The position numbers were made by a program, and so were the translations under genes. Source: Candidatus Parcubacteria bacterium (GTDB lineage: Bacteria; Patescibacteriota; Saccharimonadia; Saccharimonadales; 2-12-FULL-41-12). Taken from it: DNA of 60,485 nucleotides. Below the pieces are notes generated by a model. The model worked only from the letters and a program-made list of their open reading frames with translations. It ran no database searches and was not told the origin of the DNA. The DNA is taken from positions 1-60,485 of the forward strand of contig JAHWKM010000005.1 in assembly GCA_019347895.1 (NCBI GenBank), read 5' to 3'. Positions 41,854 through 47,336 of this stretch are shown here, piece by piece (the first letter of the stretch is position 1; every line of letters starts with the position of its first letter).

Positions 41854-43104
41854 CTACTTCGCAAGCCTTTTTATCAACTCATCCTTTGTAATAATTTCGG
41901 CATTTTCTTCCGTGCGTTTTTGAAATTCAAAACCGCCTTTTCCTAAGCTCTTTTCACTAATCACAACGCGGCAAGGAATACCGGTTAAATCCGCGTCGGC
42001 AAATTTCTGGCCGGGCCGAATGTCCCGATCATCATACAGGACATTAATGTTTTTACTCTGTAAAAATTCGTACAGCTCTTTAGCGGTTTCTATTATTTTT
42101 GATTCGATTCCAAGAGATGCCAAATATACTTGATACGGCGCAATGTTAGCTGGCCATACCAGGCCCTTTTTATCGGCAAATTTTTCAACCAGGACACCTA
42201 TCAGTCTGGTAATACCAATGCCATATGAGCCAAGGTGTACAAACTGCGACTCGCCGGCTTCATTCGTATACTTAAAGTCCATTTCCTTACTTTTTATGGT
42301 ATCGAAATTAAATATATTGCCGACTTCCGCGGTTTTTACACGCTCCAGTTCATCACGTTTTAGCCCTAGTTTATCCACTACTTCGTCGGTAAAAACTTCT
42401 TCATTGACCGCTATTTTTTTATCCCGGCTTAGATAAACCGCGTCTTCCCCGGCCTCGCAAATGGTCTGGAACTCATGGCTAAATTCCGTAAATGCCCCGC
42501 CGCTGGCGACGGTTAAGAACGTTTCCTCACCTATACCTAACCGAGAGAATACTCTATGATAAGCTTCGATGCTTTTTTGATAAAAATCTTCATGCTGATC
42601 CGCGTCCAGGCTGCAAGAGTACATGTCTTTCATCACGAACTCCCGCCCGCGCATGACGCCGCTTTTTGCCCTGAGCTCATTGCGCAGTTTTGTTTGGAAC
42701 TGGTAGACATTGGCCGGCAAATCTTTGTAGCTTGATAAATGGTTTTTCATCATTTGGATAATCGCTTCCTCGTGCGACCAGGCCAGTCCGACTTCCGTGC
42801 CATTTTTAAGCTTCGATTTGAACCATATATCTACAATTTCATCGCTCCATCTGTCTGTTTTTTCCCAGGTTTCTCTAGATTGTAGGCTGCTCATAATCAG
42901 CTCTTGTCCGCCGATTGCATTCATCTCTTCGCGCACAATCTGCTTAATATTTTCCGCCACGGCCAGACCCAGCGGCAAATACGAATAAACCCCGGCCATT
43001 TCTTTATGGACATAGCCGGCCTGAATCAACAGCTGGGCATTACGCGCCGTCTCATCGGCCGGTACATTTTTAGACGTTTTTGTGAATAACTGCGACTGAC
43101 GCAT
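41854..43104 (-). CDS. proS: Proline--tRNA ligase (short form without editing domain)
   Basis: LLIQAGY, SHEE, RNELRAKSGVMRGREF, GSYGIGITR, DADLTG. Confidence 0.94.
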   Translation of the reverse strand: MRQSQLFTKTSKNVPADETARNAQLLIQAGYVHKEMAGVYSYLPLGLAVAENIKQIVREEMNAIGGQELIMSSLQSRETWEKTDRWSDEIVDIWFKSKLKNGTEVGLAWSHEEAIIQMMKNHLSSYKDLPANVYQFQTKLRNELRAKSGVMRGREFVMKDMYSCSLDADQHEDFYQKSIEAYHRVFSRLGIGEETFLTVASGGAFTEFSHEFQTICEAGEDAVYLSRDKKIAVNEEVFTDEVVDKLGLKRDELERVKTAEVGNIFNFDTIKSKEMDFKYTNEAGESQFVHLGSYGIGITRLIGVLVEKFADKKGLVWPANIAPYQVYLASLGIESKIIETAKELYEFLQSKNINVLYDDRDIRPGQKFADADLTGIPCRVVISEKSLGKGGFEFQKRTEENAEIITKDELIKRLAK

Positions 43105-43126: not shown

Positions 43127-43954
43127 TTATTGTACCATTCTCGTACATGCGCATTTGCCTAAAATCATATCAACTGGACTAATGCCAGAGTTTCCGTAAA
43201 TTACTTCACCGACCTTGCCGCTCTTAACCGCTTTAGCCATTGCTTTTAATTTGCTTTCAATACCTCCTGTTCCCCTTACGGATTTCATCCCAGCAAATTT
43301 TTTTAGCAGCATATCAATGTCATCTACCTTTATTTGTTCAACTACCTCATCATTATCATCTTTAAAACCATCCGTGCGCTGGCTCTGTAGAATTAAATAT
43401 TTTGCCCCTAAAACAATGGCTATGTGTGCTGCTAGCCAGTCATTGTCAGGTTCAAAATCTTTTTTTCCGTGTTCTTCGCTATTAAGGTAAGCCGCCAAAA
43501 ATTCATCAAGTTCTTCTTCGCCTGTAGCTTGATTTTCATTGATAATAGGCAAAGCTCCTCGATACAAATCATCCCGAATAGCCCTTTGAAATAAATGTCT
43601 TTCATAGGCATCATCAAGCTCATGATTAGTAGCAAGTATTTGAGTGGTTTCTACTCCGTATCTGTCGCCAGAATCACTCCATCGTTGCATCTGTCCCAAT
43701 GTGCCTCTTCTAGCCAGTTCGGCAAAAGTAAGTCTCTCGGGATCAATTCCACGATCAACACAATATTGTTTGCCCTCTACGACTGAACCTGACGCGACTT
43801 GAGCTGTAGCCGTAACTAAGCCAGACTCTCTAAGTTCAACGTTATATCCCGTTGTCCGGTCTATTTTTTCTTGGTCTGATCCAATGCCATTTTCATTAGC
43901 GAAAGAGCCTGAACCACCTTTTAAAATTCCTATTTCTAATTTTTCCAAACTCAT
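43127..43954 (-). CDS. proB: Divergent glutamate 5-kinase (no PUA domain)
   Basis: LKGGSG, VASGSV, PIINENQ, PDND, GTGGIESKL match G5K motifs. True start is MSLEK at 43954 after ggag; the gene is linked to proS and a Pro leader. Confidence 0.75.
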   Translation of the reverse strand: MSLEKLEIGILKGGSGSFANENGIGSDQEKIDRTTGYNVELRESGLVTATAQVASGSVVEGKQYCVDRGIDPERLTFAELARRGTLGQMQRWSDSGDRYGVETTQILATNHELDDAYERHLFQRAIRDDLYRGALPIINENQATGEEELDEFLAAYLNSEEHGKKDFEPDNDWLAAHIAIVLGAKYLILQSQRTDGFKDDNDEVVEQIKVDDIDMLLKKFAGMKSVRGTGGIESKLKAMAKAVKSGKVGEVIYGNSGISPVDMILGKCACTRMVQ

Positions 43955-43975
43955 AGTTTTCTCCAAAATCAGCAC

Positions 43976-44004
43976 AAACAAAAAAACGGCCCGGAGGCCG
44001 TTTT
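43976..44004 (-). terminator. Intrinsic attenuator terminator upstream of proB
   Basis: Minus strand aaaacggcc-TCCG-ggccgtttttttgttt: 9-bp stem, UNCG loop, U-tract. Confidence 0.85.
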
Positions 44005-44036
44005 GCGCTGATTTTTTAAATTTACTTAATTTTAAC

Positions 44037-44096
44037 TTAGCCTCCGGGGTTAATCGGGGCCGGCGGAACAATTAAGTTTATTTTTATAACAATCAT
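44037..44096 (-). CDS. Pro-rich leader peptide MIVIKINLIVPPAPINPGG (19 aa)
   Basis: atg att gtt ata aaa ata aac tta att gtt CCG CCG gcc CCG att aac CCC gga ggc taa; its 3' end is complementary to the downstream terminator. Confidence 0.8.
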   Translation of the reverse strand: MIVIKINLIVPPAPINPGG

Positions 44097-44139
44097 AATT
44101 ATCCATAAACATTAACATACCAAAAAGATTTTAGCAAAT

Positions 44140-44183
44140 ACAGTACCGTAAACTTGTCCGGCCGGACATAAAAATGGTACTGT
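44140..44183. terminator. Hairpin after the CPBP gene (probable terminator)
   Basis: acagtaccgt/atggtactgt arms enclosing the perfect palindrome tgtccggccggaca. Confidence 0.5.
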
Positions 44184-44198
44184 TTTTATTTTTAATTG

Positions 44199-45044
44199 TT
44201 ATTTTATATGGAAGATGAAAATACTGACGAAAGCTATGCTGTTTTTTGCAGCGTGAACTAGCATGCCGGCGTAGATGTTGCCGGTTTTCTCGCGCAGCCA
44301 GATCAAAAACATAGACAACACAAAGGTATCAATGGCAACTATCCATAACGGATGATTGCCGCTGCCTAGTTGAAGGTGGGCGAATCCGAAAATCGCGCTG
44401 GCTAATAAGGCGGCGGATACTTTGCCTAATTTTTTAACTAAACCGCCGTATAAAAAGCCGCGGATCAATATTTCTTCGGAAACAGACGGAACAATCACTA
44501 AGCTTATGAAAACCATGGCCAATGCTATCTGGCCGGCTGCTTGATCAAAACCGATCTGCTGGTCTTGCTCCACATTAATGGCCGGTACAAACGACGAGAT
44601 TACCGCTACCACGATAATCAATGAAACAAAATAAACCCCGAAAACCGGGATGGCCAGCAGCAAGTTTTTTAGGCTGGTTTTTTTAAGTCCAATATCGCTC
44701 CATTTTACGCCGCGGAGATTTAAAAAAAGCCGAAGAAGCAAGATGGTAAATATACCGACAGATAAAAAATAAAAGAATTGGGCTATCGTAGAACCACTCA
44801 GCAAAGCCACTGTTTGACTTTGGTTCAAACCCTTAGCAGCCGCATATAATCCCAACCCTACGGCGGCTATTATCTGTGAGCCAAAATATACAGCGATGGT
44901 TATTAAGATCGCGGAAATTGGTCCAAATTCTGTTAATTTCTGGGGTCGTTTTTTAAAGCCGGTTTTTTTTGCCATATTATGGCTAGGCTCAACTTCGGTA
45001 TTGTCTCTTGCCGTTTCGCTAGTTTCTTTTTTTGCGCTAGCCAT
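44199..45044 (-). CDS. CPBP (CAAX/Abi) intramembrane protease
   Basis: EEILIRG, FGFAH, HAAKN. Confidence 0.9.
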   Translation of the reverse strand: MASAKKETSETARDNTEVEPSHNMAKKTGFKKRPQKLTEFGPISAILITIAVYFGSQIIAAVGLGLYAAAKGLNQSQTVALLSGSTIAQFFYFLSVGIFTILLLRLFLNLRGVKWSDIGLKKTSLKNLLLAIPVFGVYFVSLIIVVAVISSFVPAINVEQDQQIGFDQAAGQIALAMVFISLVIVPSVSEEILIRGFLYGGLVKKLGKVSAALLASAIFGFAHLQLGSGNHPLWIVAIDTFVLSMFLIWLREKTGNIYAGMLVHAAKNSIAFVSIFIFHIK

Positions 45045-45058
45045 ATATGCCCTATTTA

Positions 45059-46165
45059 TTAGAAGAAGCGTTTAATATCAACAATCGTAATTAAAATAAT
45101 AAGTCCCATTAAAGCCACGAAGCCAGCTCCGTGAATAAGTTCTTCTGTTTCTTTTTTTAACGGCTTGTTTAAGGCTCTGAACAGTAGCAATACAAATAGC
45201 CTGCCGCCATCCAGTGCCGGTATGGGAAGGGCGTTGATTATAGCCAAAGTAAGAGAGATTATGGCGATTATAACCAGTACGAAGCTAAGTCCGATCTGGC
45301 TGCCCGCTTCTAGGATTTTGACTATGCCGACCGGGCCTGTTACTTGCTCGCTAGCCGTTTTGGTGTCGCCTTTAAACAAGCTGGAGAAAACTTTTCCCAG
45401 GCCTTCAAAAGTCAGGCCTGTAAGCTGAGCAGACAGCCCGACGCCCACGATTGGCGCCGACCAGGTGCTGCGTTGCAGCTGAACGGCGCTGGCGCCGGGT
45501 TCGGTAGCAACACCAAGGAAGCCTCCGTCATTTTCTTGGTTTAGCGCCACCTCGAGAGCCTGGCGCTTGCCATTCCTTTCGATAACTATCGGTACGGTTT
45601 GGCCGGCATTTTCTTCTGTTAAATCACCGATTTCTCCTAAGCGGCTGATCTGTGTATTATTTATTGAGACTATCCGGTCGCCTTCCTTAATTCCGGCTTG
45701 CTCGGCCGGGGAATTTTCGGTGACCTTACTGGTAAGAACTTCTATTTCTTGGATTACTTTTGTATCGCCGGCGATGGTATATTGCTTATCGACCAGCTTC
45801 GGCATGCCTAGGACAGCTAGGGCGCTAAAAAGCAAAATTGCTACCACCAAATTCATAAAAACGCCCGCCAGCATAATCTTGATCTTGGTTTTTATCGGAG
45901 CCGCGCCGAAGGTGGCCGGCCGCCTGTCTTCGTCGTTTTCACCCTTTAGCTTTACAAATCCGCCCAGCGGCAACAGGTTTATTGTGAAGAGGAACTTGCT
46001 ATTATTTGTCTTAACCTTGCGTCCCCATACTTTTGGCGGGAAACCTATGCCAAATTCCTCTACTTCAACGCCGCCGCGACGGGCCGCCAAAAAATGCCCC
46101 CACTCATGGACCACAACCAAGCCCACGAAGAGCACAAAAGCTAAAACCATTAATAATACTGTCAT
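45059..46165 (-). CDS. rseP: Site-2 (M50) RIP metalloprotease with PDZ
   Basis: HEWGH, FGIGF, NALPIPALDGG. Confidence 0.92.
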   Translation of the reverse strand: MTVLLMVLAFVLFVGLVVVHEWGHFLAARRGGVEVEEFGIGFPPKVWGRKVKTNNSKFLFTINLLPLGGFVKLKGENDEDRRPATFGAAPIKTKIKIMLAGVFMNLVVAILLFSALAVLGMPKLVDKQYTIAGDTKVIQEIEVLTSKVTENSPAEQAGIKEGDRIVSINNTQISRLGEIGDLTEENAGQTVPIVIERNGKRQALEVALNQENDGGFLGVATEPGASAVQLQRSTWSAPIVGVGLSAQLTGLTFEGLGKVFSSLFKGDTKTASEQVTGPVGIVKILEAGSQIGLSFVLVIIAIISLTLAIINALPIPALDGGRLFVLLLFRALNKPLKKETEELIHGAGFVALMGLIILITIVDIKRFF

Positions 46166-46725
46166 ATGGTGAGGATTTCTTGTTCTTTGGTTTTGGCGGT
46201 TAACTCGACTTGGGTTTTGACCTTGGTCATTAGATCATCGATTTGTTTAGCGTAGCGTTTTTGTTCGTCCTCGCCGATTTGTTTGTCTTTTTTAGCCTGG
46301 TCGATCTCGCGCATGGCTTCGTGGCGGGCATTTCTCATGGCTATCATGCATTCTTCTACTTTTATATTAAGCTGCTTTACGATTTCGCGGCGGCGCTCTT
46401 CTGTTAGCGGTGGAATTTGGACGCGGACTACCTGGCCGTCGTCGCTGGGATTCATGCCTAATGTCGGGTTGTTCCTGATGCTATCTGAAATAGATTGTAA
46501 ATTATTCGGGTCAAAGGGGCGAATTTGCAACAGCTGAGGCTCCGGCGTCGTAATTGTCGCCACCTGGATAAGCGGCATTGGCGAACCATAAGCGTCTACC
46601 TTAAGGCTTTCCAGCATATCCGGATGGGCCCGGCCGGTGCGCAGCTTTTTTAGCTCATTTTTAAAATGCTCGGCCGCCGCCTGAAATTTATTCTCCGCCT
46701 GCTTAACTGATTGCTCTGGAGTCAT
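46162..46725 (-). CDS. frr: Ribosome recycling factor
   Basis: LRTGRAHP, PPLTEERRREIVK. Confidence 0.96.
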   Translation of the reverse strand: MTPEQSVKQAENKFQAAAEHFKNELKKLRTGRAHPDMLESLKVDAYGSPMPLIQVATITTPEPQLLQIRPFDPNNLQSISDSIRNNPTLGMNPSDDGQVVRVQIPPLTEERRREIVKQLNIKVEECMIAMRNARHEAMREIDQAKKDKQIGEDEQKRYAKQIDDLMTKVKTQVELTAKTKEQEILTI

Positions 46726-46745
46726 GTTATTTAAGTTTACCCTAT

Positions 46746-47336
46746 TTACGAAACTTCGCCCAAAGCCAGGCGGCTAAATCTTTTAACTACTATATTTTCG
46801 CCTAGTTTGGCGTTATTTTCCTTTACGTATTCAGCGATTGTCTGGTCAGGATTTTTTATAAAGGGCTGGTCAAGCAGGCAGCGCTGTGCAAAATGTTTTT
46901 TTAGCATTCCTTCTACTATTTGCTCTATCATATTTTCCGGCTTGCCCTCGGCTTTTATTTTTTCGCTGAATTCCGCCTTTACCTTTTCACGCGCGTCTTC
47001 AGGCACATCATCTTGGCTTATGTATTGGGGGCTGGAGGCCGCGATATGCATCGCCAGATTTTTAACCATATCTGTGAAGATTTCATTCCTGGCTACAAAA
47101 TCAGTCTCGCAGTTAACTTCTACGACGACGCCTATTCTGCTGTCGTGGTTGTATGTGCCGATAATGCCGGCGCGTGCTTCACGTTCGCCGCGTTTTTCAG
47201 CCTTGGTCAAGCCTTTTTTGCGCATGGCCTCCAGGGCTTTGTCAAAATCACCGCCGGTTTCTTCCAGGGCTTTTTTGGCGTCCGTTATGCCTACACCGGT
47301 AAGTTCGCGCAGCCGTTTAATTTGCTCTATATCCAC
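46746..47336 (-). CDS. tsf: Elongation factor Ts (short form)
   Basis: LRELTG..DAKKAL, EVNCETDFVA. Confidence 0.96.
   Translation of the reverse strand: MDIEQIKRLRELTGVGITDAKKALEETGGDFDKALEAMRKKGLTKAEKRGEREARAGIIGTYNHDSRIGVVVEVNCETDFVARNEIFTDMVKNLAMHIAASSPQYISQDDVPEDAREKVKAEFSEKIKAEGKPENMIEQIVEGMLKKHFAQRCLLDQPFIKNPDQTIAEYVKENNAKLGENIVVKRFSRLALGEVS

Follow-up and report, generated by a model that had tools for sequence, protein, structure and literature searches.

How is the minus-strand operon that encodes an amino-acid kinase and prolyl-tRNA synthetase (proS) controlled in this genome, and what is the role of the segment directly in front of it? The stretch of DNA analysed here (the window) is 60,485 nt long and comes from a genome (G000) that is 92.6% complete. 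Comparison with related genomes, together with RNA folding, makes it likely that the segment is a ribosome-mediated (leader-peptide) transcription attenuator, which would set kinase-proS expression according to the supply of Pro-tRNA(Pro).

Leader element and its folding

On the minus strand, positions 44096 to 43955 hold a 19-codon upstream open reading frame (uORF), an intrinsic terminator, a 9–10 bp antiterminator and an outer stem, each lying where a sequence-only reading of this DNA had located it. In order of transcription, the features of the locus are as follows:

44141–44182, minus strand: palindromic hairpin directly after the stop codon of the CPBP protease gene (six copies aligned from G000 share an invariant core)
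44109–44137, minus strand: putative promoter, with −35 TTGCTA (44137–44132), a 17-nt spacer and a TG-extended −10 TAATGT (44114–44109)
44037–44096, minus strand: leader uORF, 19 codons plus TAA, read from the sequence (ATG at 44096, TAA ending at 44037)
44055–44066, minus strand: regulatory codons CCG CCG GCC CCG (P-P-A-P), also termed region 1, a potential pairing partner of region 2
44039–44048, minus strand: region 2, the antiterminator 5′ strand, made up of the three final sense codons plus the stop codon's first base
44005–44015, minus strand: outer stem, 5′ arm, with compensatory changes in relatives
43976–44004, minus strand: intrinsic terminator, with a 9-bp stem (44004–43996 with 43991–43983), a UCCG loop and a U tract to ~43976
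43990–43999, minus strand: region 3, comprising terminator 5′ arm, loop and two 3′-arm bases, which pairs with region 2 or region 4
43965–43975, minus strand: outer stem, 3′ arm, downstream of the U tract and abutting the Shine-Dalgarno
43952–43964, minus strand: GGAG Shine-Dalgarno (43964–43961) and ATG (43954–43952) of the first structural gene, read from the sequence
43127–43954, minus strand: orphan glutamate-5-kinase-like amino-acid kinase, 275 aa, assigned by profile, structure and motif comparison
41854–43104, minus strand: prolyl-tRNA synthetase, 416 aa, the conserved and putatively regulated gene

The terminator stem (44004–43983; nine pairs, five of them G-C, with a 4-nt loop and a T tail) was also detected by a terminator scan. 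Positions 44048–44040 are a perfect 9-nt complement of 43998–43990, as the sequence-only reading had noted in proposing a mutually exclusive antiterminator, and an extra U-G pair extends this helix to 10. The outer stem, which had been described as reaching the ribosome-binding site, pairs 44015–44005 with 43975–43965 and does end right at GGAG; its 3′ arm lies beyond the U tract, so that the complete stem would be present in read-through transcripts only. As had also been pointed out, the ORF list hides the element by starting the kinase at a TTG at 44071, so that its frame runs through the terminator, a call that is corrected here. The transcript is predicted to start ~5–7 nt before the uORF AUG, giving a 5′ UTR of ~6 nt in the window. 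The hairpin at 44141–44182, a member of a G000 repeat family, is outside the attenuator proper and probably terminates the upstream operon.

Both the fold and the antiterminator lie beyond chance expectation. The 261-nt intergenic RNA has a folding z of −4.28 (0/200 shuffles fold as well), and the antiterminator duplex (−15.5 kcal/mol, compared with −8.4 ± 2.4 kcal/mol for shuffles) was reached by 4/500 shuffles. Folding of the window RNA revealed that the most stable fold switches with ribosome position. In ribosome-free RNA, the terminator fold is favoured over the antiterminator (−32.3 vs −21.3 kcal/mol); with codon 11 in the ribosome P site, the antiterminator is the most stable structure (−18.9 vs −15.3 kcal/mol); and a ribosome masks region 2 when it is at Pro14 or has reached the stop codon. 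The window RNA follows the classical logic, in which a stall at Pro-Pro leads to the antiterminator, and the terminator forms when no ribosome is present or when one has reached the stop codon. Since a stall at Pro14 would mask the antiterminator in the window genome, the Pro-Pro pair appears to be the effective sensor there, and the earlier proposal that the Pro codons act as the sensor would hold for this pair and not for Pro14.

Conservation and covariation in Saccharibacteria

At least 20 Saccharibacteria genomes carry this element at the equivalent place, in the gene order rseP, CPBP protease, leader, gene X, proS. In eight relatives, the leader DNA is 73–81% identical, while the kinase, where matched with the window query, is just 29–39% identical. 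The order leader-gene X-proS is kept in 20/21 aligned leaders, the exception being a second copy in genome G093, and a putative CPBP protease gene lies upstream wherever the fetched stretch reaches far enough. A covariance model returned one match in G000, matches in 7/30 genomes of the family and, after removal of three non-homologous weak matches, in 13/151 genomes of the order. At the class level, 5/151 genomes matched, of which four are real, namely that in G000 and those in three more genomes of the order; the sole match in another order was rejected as a plain terminator. A pattern scan, with at least 120 matches, proved too loose: among the matches listed, 3/80 loci were real by the covariance model, all three from records named Candidatus Saccharibacteria or Patescibacteria group, and most matches fell in G+C-rich genomes.

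The uORF keeps its frame, length and start codon in 21/21 aligned leaders, each of which has an ATG followed by 10–11 non-conserved codons and then P-P-x-P. All 63 codons at the three Pro positions (63/63) encode Pro and differ only synonymously, in the third base; x is Ala in 19 leaders, Thr in one and Asn in one. The stop codon occupies four different positions, always ≤5 nt from region 2 (21/21). The Pro codons reported by the sequence-only reading at positions 11, 12 and 14 (44066–44055) and 17 of the window uORF are all present; the last is unique to the window genome among the aligned leaders and results from a 1-nt deletion that shifts the frame after the P-P-A-P codons. A −10-like hexamer ends 6–8 nt before the AUG in 15/21 leaders, and the uORF has no Shine-Dalgarno in 20/21, so that its translation would rest on a leaderless or near-leaderless start.

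The antiterminator is paired in 189/189 alignment cells, although the alignment was not fitted to this helix; sliding one strand as a control gave 21–66% pairing. Three of its nine pairs, including terminator-loop bases, changed on both sides, in 4 cells only and among related genomes, so that the covariation statistics overstate independence. The terminator stem is conserved (98% paired), terminator and outer stem together are 95% paired with compensatory changes in 14/27 pairs, and G168, a base of region 3, covaries with region 2 as well as with region 4. Helix 1:2, at 91% pairing, covaries weakly and is broken in the P-P-T-P and P-P-N-P variants. The main outer helix has compensatory changes in 10/10 pairs (95% of cells paired), yet this strongly covarying stem has no role in the classical attenuation model. 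The sequence-only reading had named conserved Pro-codon uORFs and a covarying terminator and antiterminator as what should be sought in relatives, and both were found; the trp/his-type geometry that it proposed holds in all 21 aligned leaders, as well as in the folding energies of the window RNA.

The gene after the leader varies, being the kinase in 9 of the aligned cases, an unrelated small protein in 11 and a 323-residue protein in one (the second G093 copy, after which no proS was seen). This distribution points to proS, not the kinase, as the conserved target of the leader. Of the glutamate 5-kinase plus ProRS operon suggested previously, the proS part is conserved, while the kinase slot is variable and the name 'proB' is not secure. 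The kinase scores 69 bits against TIGR01027 (ProB), under the cut-off of 186; its nearest solved structures are all glutamate 5-kinases (E ~3e-8), and the motifs K-x-G-S, DND-x-L-x-A and GTGG-x-x-KL are kept. No proA or proC match was found in the 92.6% complete G000, and proA exceeds its cut-off in 2/121 genomes of the order. The small X-slot protein family returned no Pfam match and no BLASTP link to kinases; its predicted model is helical (pLDDT 74.6) and matched 0 PDB folds at E ≤ 0.001. The 323-aa protein had no match in the protein atlas and belongs to no known family.

The closest congener searched (G001) carries kinase-proS behind a plain promoter without the leader, and no leader was seen in 43/48 non-R1 proS upstream regions sampled in the order, suggesting that the element is dispensable. 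Eleven further genomes possess sequence-unrelated leaders of the same design before a kinase-proS or X-proS operon, which would have arisen independently. Each has 9–11 codons followed by 2–4 Pro within ~7 codons, and a stop codon adjoining a segment complementary to a different terminator, which is present. An unbiased scan of the 48 non-R1 regions returned five such leaders on the sense strand and none on the reverse strand; a peptide-only Pro-leader criterion was unspecific (7 sense vs 6 reverse strand), discrimination being obtained only with the criterion that also requires a terminator. In 15 varied leaders, the offset of region 2 relative to the stop codon ranges from −14 to +13 nt, and the duplex energies of single divergent leaders are modestly better than those of shuffles (1 to 84 of 500 shuffles reach them). 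A Met-codon leader of the same design (M-M-M-P-M) precedes MetRS operons at five loci in five genomes, and a sixth copy, the second in G066, precedes another, non-MetRS gene. No Met leader was found at G000 metG, and a crude screen of G000 (uORF, terminator and antiterminator) yielded no other convincing attenuator.

Alternative explanations and known systems

Instead of the supply of proline or Pro-tRNA, the same switch could read polyproline stalling as such, and with it EF-P activity or the overall capacity for elongation; we regard this as unlikely. Pro-Pro bonding is slow without EF-P, and the resulting stall would free the antiterminator alike; moreover, the consecutive Pro-Pro is invariant in the 21 main-type leaders and G000 encodes EF-P (198.7 bits, over its cut-off). 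EF-P-responsive Pro-codon leaders have been reported for Salmonella mgtA (PMC6460261, PMC5021804). However, what all loci share as the putative target is the ProRS gene, in line with Pro-tRNA sensing, and several of the unrelated proS leaders lack Pro-Pro, their prolines being set apart (P-x-P, P-x-P-x-P, P-x-x-P), a spacing that does not suggest EF-P-dependent arrest. Such separated-proline motifs would be weak at this arrest, and the parallel Met-codon leader in front of MetRS operons suggests that cognate codons are what is sensed. Less likely again is another primary role to which proS control is incidental, with the short terminated transcript acting in trans as a small RNA or the hairpin serving processing or stability. 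The covarying outer stem would suit such a role, since its 3′ arm follows the U tract and the stem cannot join in termination, as would the G093 leader copy before an unrelated gene; attenuator-derived small RNAs are also known in Sinorhizobium (PMC6614838). A trans role leaves unexplained why the frame is fixed, why the Pro codons are invariant apart from synonymous changes and why the stop codon always abuts region 2, and sequence-unrelated leaders with the same logic stand at the same place.

We consider it very improbable that the uORF is a small gene whose peptide product is functional, for instance as a substrate for the CPBP-family membrane protease encoded next to it, and that the hairpin is this gene's terminator. 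In the window, the uORF does directly follow a CPBP/Rce1-like protease gene, a gene comparable in size and start (identified by these two features) precedes it at every related locus whose stretch extends that far, and the first part of the peptide is fairly hydrophobic; its 10–11 N-terminal residues, however, are unconserved. The peptide tail is likewise unconserved as protein, given that the window reads another frame and that in 4/21 leaders the peptide ends one residue beyond P-P-x-P, with the underlying RNA conserved all the same. No gene-sized spacing or promoter lies between the hairpin and the next gene. A bidirectional terminator was also rejected, as the neighbouring genes are all on one strand and the opposite strand has no consistent T run in relatives.

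The preferred reading, an attenuator responding to Pro-tRNA supply, is in keeping with the class features found in the proS leader, namely a cognate-codon uORF, a terminator, a strand-sharing antiterminator and the placement of the stop codon. An Rfam search of the whole window returned 0 matches at gathering score. The best sub-threshold match over the whole element was Phe_leader (RF01859; E = 0.0099), membership of which was rejected at 27.9 bits against a gathering score of 55. In E. coli, the pheM-pheST leader peptide controls phenylalanyl-tRNA synthetase. Further synthetase-type attenuators comprise predicted trpS and leuS leaders in Streptomyces and a His leader before a hisS paralogue in bacilli (PMC1262725, PMC2965389). 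The proS leader shares with these a cognate-codon uORF, an intrinsic terminator and an exclusive antiterminator before a synthetase operon, and charged cognate tRNA, their signal, is proposed for it as well. It differs from this group in concerning proline and ProRS, in its Saccharibacteria host and the lack of any sequence relationship, in an apparently (near-)leaderless uORF with a fixed 10–11-codon spacer, and in the extra covarying outer stem that clamps the terminator. As in the trp/his leaders and Phe_leader, four regions form the helices 1:2, 2:3 and 3:4; as in the trp/his leaders, the stop codon would let a terminating ribosome mask region 2, and the untranslated state would terminate too. 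Unlike the trp/his leaders, the proS leader has three sensing codons and no long run, and its target is a synthetase, not biosynthesis.

Salmonella mgtL and mgtP are similar in that Pro codons of the leader uORF couple Pro-tRNA or EF-P status to alternative stem-loops (PMC3641672), but their targets are Mg2+ transporter and virulence genes, they operate in combination with other signals and they share no sequence relationship with the proS leader, whose putative target is the proline-charging enzyme itself. The T-boxes of Firmicutes proS serve the same end, in that uncharged cognate tRNA raises synthetase levels, yet bind tRNA directly and need no translation. T-box RF00230 had no match in G000 at E ≤ 0.001 and none in the window; 0/121 genomes of the order, a tally that includes the unpublished genome G062 (which contributed no sequence to this work), exceeded the gathering score, and 17 had sub-threshold matches. 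The sequence-only reading knew of no such attenuator in CPR bacteria, and our search of the full-text literature, whose scope did not extend to supplementary lists of predicted attenuators, likewise yielded no earlier description of a ProRS leader. The proS leader would thus be a leader-peptide attenuator of a kind that we have not found described for ProRS or for Saccharibacteria/CPR, and would extend classical attenuation, so far listed for a small number of synthetases (Phe, Trp, Leu, His), to proline/ProRS.

Proposed mechanism and a possible shared design

In the mechanism that we propose, the RNA would begin a few bases ahead of the uORF AUG, and a ribosome would translate 10 variable codons before meeting Pro-Pro-Ala-Pro. 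When Pro-tRNA is scarce, it would stall with codon 11 or 12 in the decoding sites, covering region 1 and leaving region 2 free to pair with region 3 as this emerges from the polymerase; no terminator stem would form, and the polymerase would read through into the kinase gene and proS. When Pro-tRNA is plentiful, the ribosome would run to the stop codon abutting region 2 and cover that region, regions 3 and 4 would form the terminator, and transcription would end in the U tract near 43980–43976. Without translation, regions 1 and 2 would pair and the terminator would form likewise.

To our knowledge, gene regulation has hardly been described in CPR/Patescibacteria, which are hard to grow and obtain amino acids from their hosts. 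The leader is a sequence-defined, comparatively supported cis-regulator from this group that is directly testable in reporters or cell-free systems, and it marks two genes of hitherto unassigned role as putatively proline-responsive. If the attenuator reading is true, Saccharibacteria cells monitor Pro-tRNA charging.

More tentatively, and with somewhat less than even confidence, we suggest that Saccharibacteria may use one modular attenuator design for several aminoacyl-tRNA synthetase operons, replacing high-scoring T-boxes. This design would consist of a leaderless uORF, a fixed 9–11-codon spacer, a few cognate codons and a stop codon abutting the antiterminator (P-P-x-P for proS, M-M-M-P-M for metG). 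The variable first gene could then serve amino-acid salvage or sensing in auxotrophic epibionts, and the outer stem could provide a further step on read-through transcripts only. Candidates for this first gene may be the orphan glutamate-5-kinase-like protein or the small helical protein in the Pro switch, and a SAM hydroxide adenosyltransferase-like protein in the Met switch.

The Pro-codon leader and its locus

The leader lies on the minus strand between a protease gene and the kinase–proS operon, and the features of the locus are as follows.

Features of the window around the leader, in order of transcription
46746–47336, minus strand: tsf
46162–46725, minus strand: frr
45059–46165, minus strand: M50/RseP protease gene
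44199–45044, minus strand: CPBP/Rce1-like protease gene
245-nt gap after the CPBP gene, minus strand: houses all leader elements
44096–44037, minus strand: leader uORF of 19 codons
Perfect 9-nt complement, minus strand: antiterminator, last sense codons against terminator 5′ arm and loop
44004–43976, minus strand: intrinsic terminator (terminator scan)
Up to the kinase-gene GGAG, minus strand: outer stem
43954–43127, minus strand: amino-acid-kinase-family gene
43104–41854, minus strand: prolyl-tRNA synthetase gene (proS), 416 aa
Downstream of proS, minus strand: greA

Inspection of the window sequence recovered the uORF, the terminator, the 9-nt complement and the outer stem where the sequence-only reading, which had proposed a proline-sensing leader-peptide attenuator controlling proB-proS, had placed them. 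As it had also pointed out, the ORF list runs the kinase frame across the terminator up to a TTG at 44071; the ATG at 43954, preceded by GGAG, is the credible kinase start. The fold of the 261-nt region returned a z-score of −4.28. No Rfam family reached its gathering score in the window; the best sub-threshold match to the leader was Phe_leader (27.9 bits against a gathering score of 55), which it resembles in architecture, though a score below threshold confers no membership. Further upstream, frr directly follows tsf (46162–47336), without pyrH, the UMP kinase gene that usually occupies the tsf–frr interval; in one relative (G035, L011), an amino-acid-kinase-family gene is present between tsf and frr.

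Alignment of 21 leaders revealed an ATG exactly 10 or 11 codons ahead of a P-P-x-P motif in every case, with no conservation of the codons in between. All 63 codons at the three Pro positions encode proline and vary at the third base only (one genome has three of the four motif codons altered, all synonymously), while x is Ala in 19 leaders, Thr in one and Asn in one. Beyond the motif, conservation at the protein level is lost; four leaders stop one codon past the motif, and the window's tail is read in another frame because of a 1-nt deletion. A Shine–Dalgarno sequence is missing ahead of the uORF in 20 of the 21 leaders, and a −10-like hexamer, often TG-extended, ends upstream of the AUG by 6–8 nt in 15, 9–10 nt in 4 and 12 nt in the window; in the G056 leader, the sole one with a Shine–Dalgarno sequence, no hexamer of this kind occurs within 14 nt. 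We infer that the uORF is leaderless or near-leaderless.

Mutually exclusive pairing and ribosome position

Here, the Pro codons are region 1, the antiterminator 5′ strand at the uORF end region 2, the terminator 5′ arm, loop and two bases of the 3′ arm region 3 and the terminator 3′ arm region 4. The 21-sequence alignment on which antiterminator pairs were counted had been fitted to the terminator fold, with no fitting to the antiterminator. All 189 cells (columns 24–32 with 81–89) were paired, and three of the nine pairs had changed on both sides, in four cells; sliding one strand by 1–3 columns lowered pairing to 21–66 %. None of 500 shuffles reached the observed pairing or the observed covariation score, a count that overstates independence because the genomes are related. 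Two of the compensated positions fall within the terminator loop, where terminator pairing imposes no constraint, and in G168, a relative, a single region 3 base has changed along with both its region 2 and its region 4 partner. In the terminator fold, compensatory changes occur in 10/10 pairs of the main outer helix, 2/2 of a short adjoining helix and 1/6 terminator pairs; in the 1:2 helix, pairing reaches 91 % and covariation is slight. The comparison suggested by the sequence-only reading, namely a search of relatives for a conserved Pro-codon uORF and a covarying terminator/antiterminator, was thus positive, and this strong comparative support argues that the element belongs to the leader-peptide attenuators, an assignment supported in its core.

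The stop codon occupies four positions across the 21 leaders and is never more than 5 nt from region 2; therefore, a terminating ribosome would cover region 2 in every leader. When no ribosome was present, the window's RNA was computed to fold at −32.3 kcal/mol as the 1:2 hairpin plus terminator, against −21.3 kcal/mol with the antiterminator. A ribosome whose P site holds codon 11 leaves the RNA free from 44050, and the antiterminator then became the minimum-energy fold (−18.9 versus −15.3 kcal/mol). Once Pro14 occupied the A site, or the ribosome had reached the stop codon, region 2 was masked and the terminator formed. As a stall at Pro14 would mask region 2 and a stall at codon 11 would free it, the Pro-Pro pair would be the effective sensor in the window's genome (G000). 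The outer stem covaries strongly although it can form in read-through transcripts only, because its 3′ arm follows the U tract. It could possibly re-fold the leader and thereby keep the region 3 CCUCC from masking the GGAG further down; roles in transcript stability or processing are also possible.

Distribution and the regulated genes

A DNA search of 60 relatives returned the uORF-to-kinase-start stretch at 73–81 % identity in eight genomes from several genera and families; their kinases, where matched with this query, were just 29–39 % identical. A covariance model built from nine copies detected one copy in the window's genome, matches in 7/30 genomes of the family and, at E≤0.01, matches in 16/151 genomes of the order, 13 of them real on reading. 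The other three, read individually, were discarded as two plain terminators and one Met-codon leader. In the class-level search, matches were confined to the window's order, and at least three records of Candidatus Saccharibacteria or Patescibacteria group bacterium carry the element.

Wherever the fetched stretch extends far enough, the leader is preceded by the CPBP gene and, further out, rseP. Downstream, 20 of the 21 aligned leaders are followed by a single variable gene (X) and then proS. Gene X encodes an amino-acid kinase in nine cases, a small protein (98–156 aa) in 11 and a 323-residue protein in one. The last is the exception, on G093 contig C1 (L043; model match 1501–1621), a second complete Pro leader in that genome that is followed by the 323-aa protein instead of proS; this protein returned no Pfam or protein-atlas match. 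ProRS occurs in the order in two lengths, about 416–430 aa (the window's type) and about 570–600 aa with an inserted region, and the leader was found upstream of both. As it precedes proS whatever the X gene or ProRS length, the constant partner is proS; the proposal of a proline attenuator of proB-proS therefore stands in its core but not in its choice of regulated genes.

Nor is the name proB secure for the window's kinase, whose TIGR01027 score is 69 bits (cut-off 186) and whose genome (92.6 % complete) has no match to proA or proC. Its closest solved structures are all glutamate 5-kinases (E about 3e-8), several of whose motifs it retains, and proA exceeds its cut-off in 2/121 genomes of the order. 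Judged by sequence, the kinase is a glutamate-5-kinase-like orphan. The small X proteins, which occupy the kinase's slot under the Pro leader, form one family (loci L018, L019, L022, L044, L046, L048, L049, L052, L057, L091 and L178), predicted to be all-helical with conserved W, R and AHH positions; they showed no Pfam family, PDB fold match or similarity to kinases.

In G001, of the same genus (L015), kinase-proS lies behind a plain TTGACA-17-TATTAT promoter without leader or terminator, suggesting that the attenuator was gained or lost recently. Of 48 regions upstream of proS, each from a different genome and together spanning 46 families, 43 lacked a leader by the rule used; with G001, this indicates a common but dispensable element.

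Leaders of equal design and alternative regulators

Genera without a model match carry leaders of equal design upstream of kinase-proS or X-proS operons: a −10 box, an ATG, 9–11 codons and then 2–4 prolines within about seven codons (P-P-P-P, P-x-P, P-x-P-P, P-x-P-x-P or P-x-x-P), followed by a stop codon adjoining a segment that complements the 5′ arm of a G+C-rich terminator of quite different sequence, then that terminator. Six were identified by reading upstream regions and five more by an unbiased scan of the 48 proS upstream regions (sense strand five, reverse strand none). In all 15 leaders tested, region 2 is located −14 to +13 nt from the stop codon and its duplex with the terminator arm is stronger than the shuffle mean, an effect that is singly modest (1 to 84 of 500 shuffles equal it).

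The weak model match in G066 is a different leader, with 9–10 codons followed by M-M-(M)-[P/S]-M and a stretch that complements its own terminator. Copies were found in G066 (L054/L230 and L240), G061 (L231), G077 (L232), G097 (L233) and G130 (L234) but not in the window's genome. Five of the six lie upstream of a variable gene and MetRS, and L240 lies upstream of a different gene. The variable gene of G066 encodes a C-terminal domain of the SAM hydroxide adenosyltransferase family, and that of G097 has a similar start. The Met leader speaks for cognate-codon sensing as a device that recurs within this lineage.

T-boxes were absent above the gathering score from all 121 genomes of the order, the window's genome lacking even a sub-threshold match. 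Full-length sub-threshold matches in 17 of the 121 (25–40 bits against a gathering score of 93; e.g. L242–L244) may mean that some Saccharibacteria have divergent T-boxes. The window's genome encodes EF-P and, among 35 tRNAs found, tRNA-Pro with GGG and UGG anticodons.

In the main texts of the literature searched, no leader-peptide attenuator was described for proS or for proline genes, nor any in Saccharibacteria or CPR. Classical attenuators are reported to precede Streptomyces trpS and leuS, with pheST also cited (PMC1262725), and a His leader to lie upstream of a hisS paralogue in bacilli (PMC2965389); Vibrio proS is listed with a T-box-like label only (PMC2836559). Pro-codon leaders are on record for the Salmonella mgt genes.

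Finally, a ~45-nt palindromic hairpin is present at 44141–44182 (minus strand). Its GTCCGGCCGGAC centre is invariant and its arms read CAGTACC/GGTACTG; an A run precedes it and a T run follows. At least six copies lie in the window's genome, among them those on C26, C20, C21 and C14 (two places; L028–L032), and the hairpin looks like a repeated bidirectional terminator that is possibly mobile.
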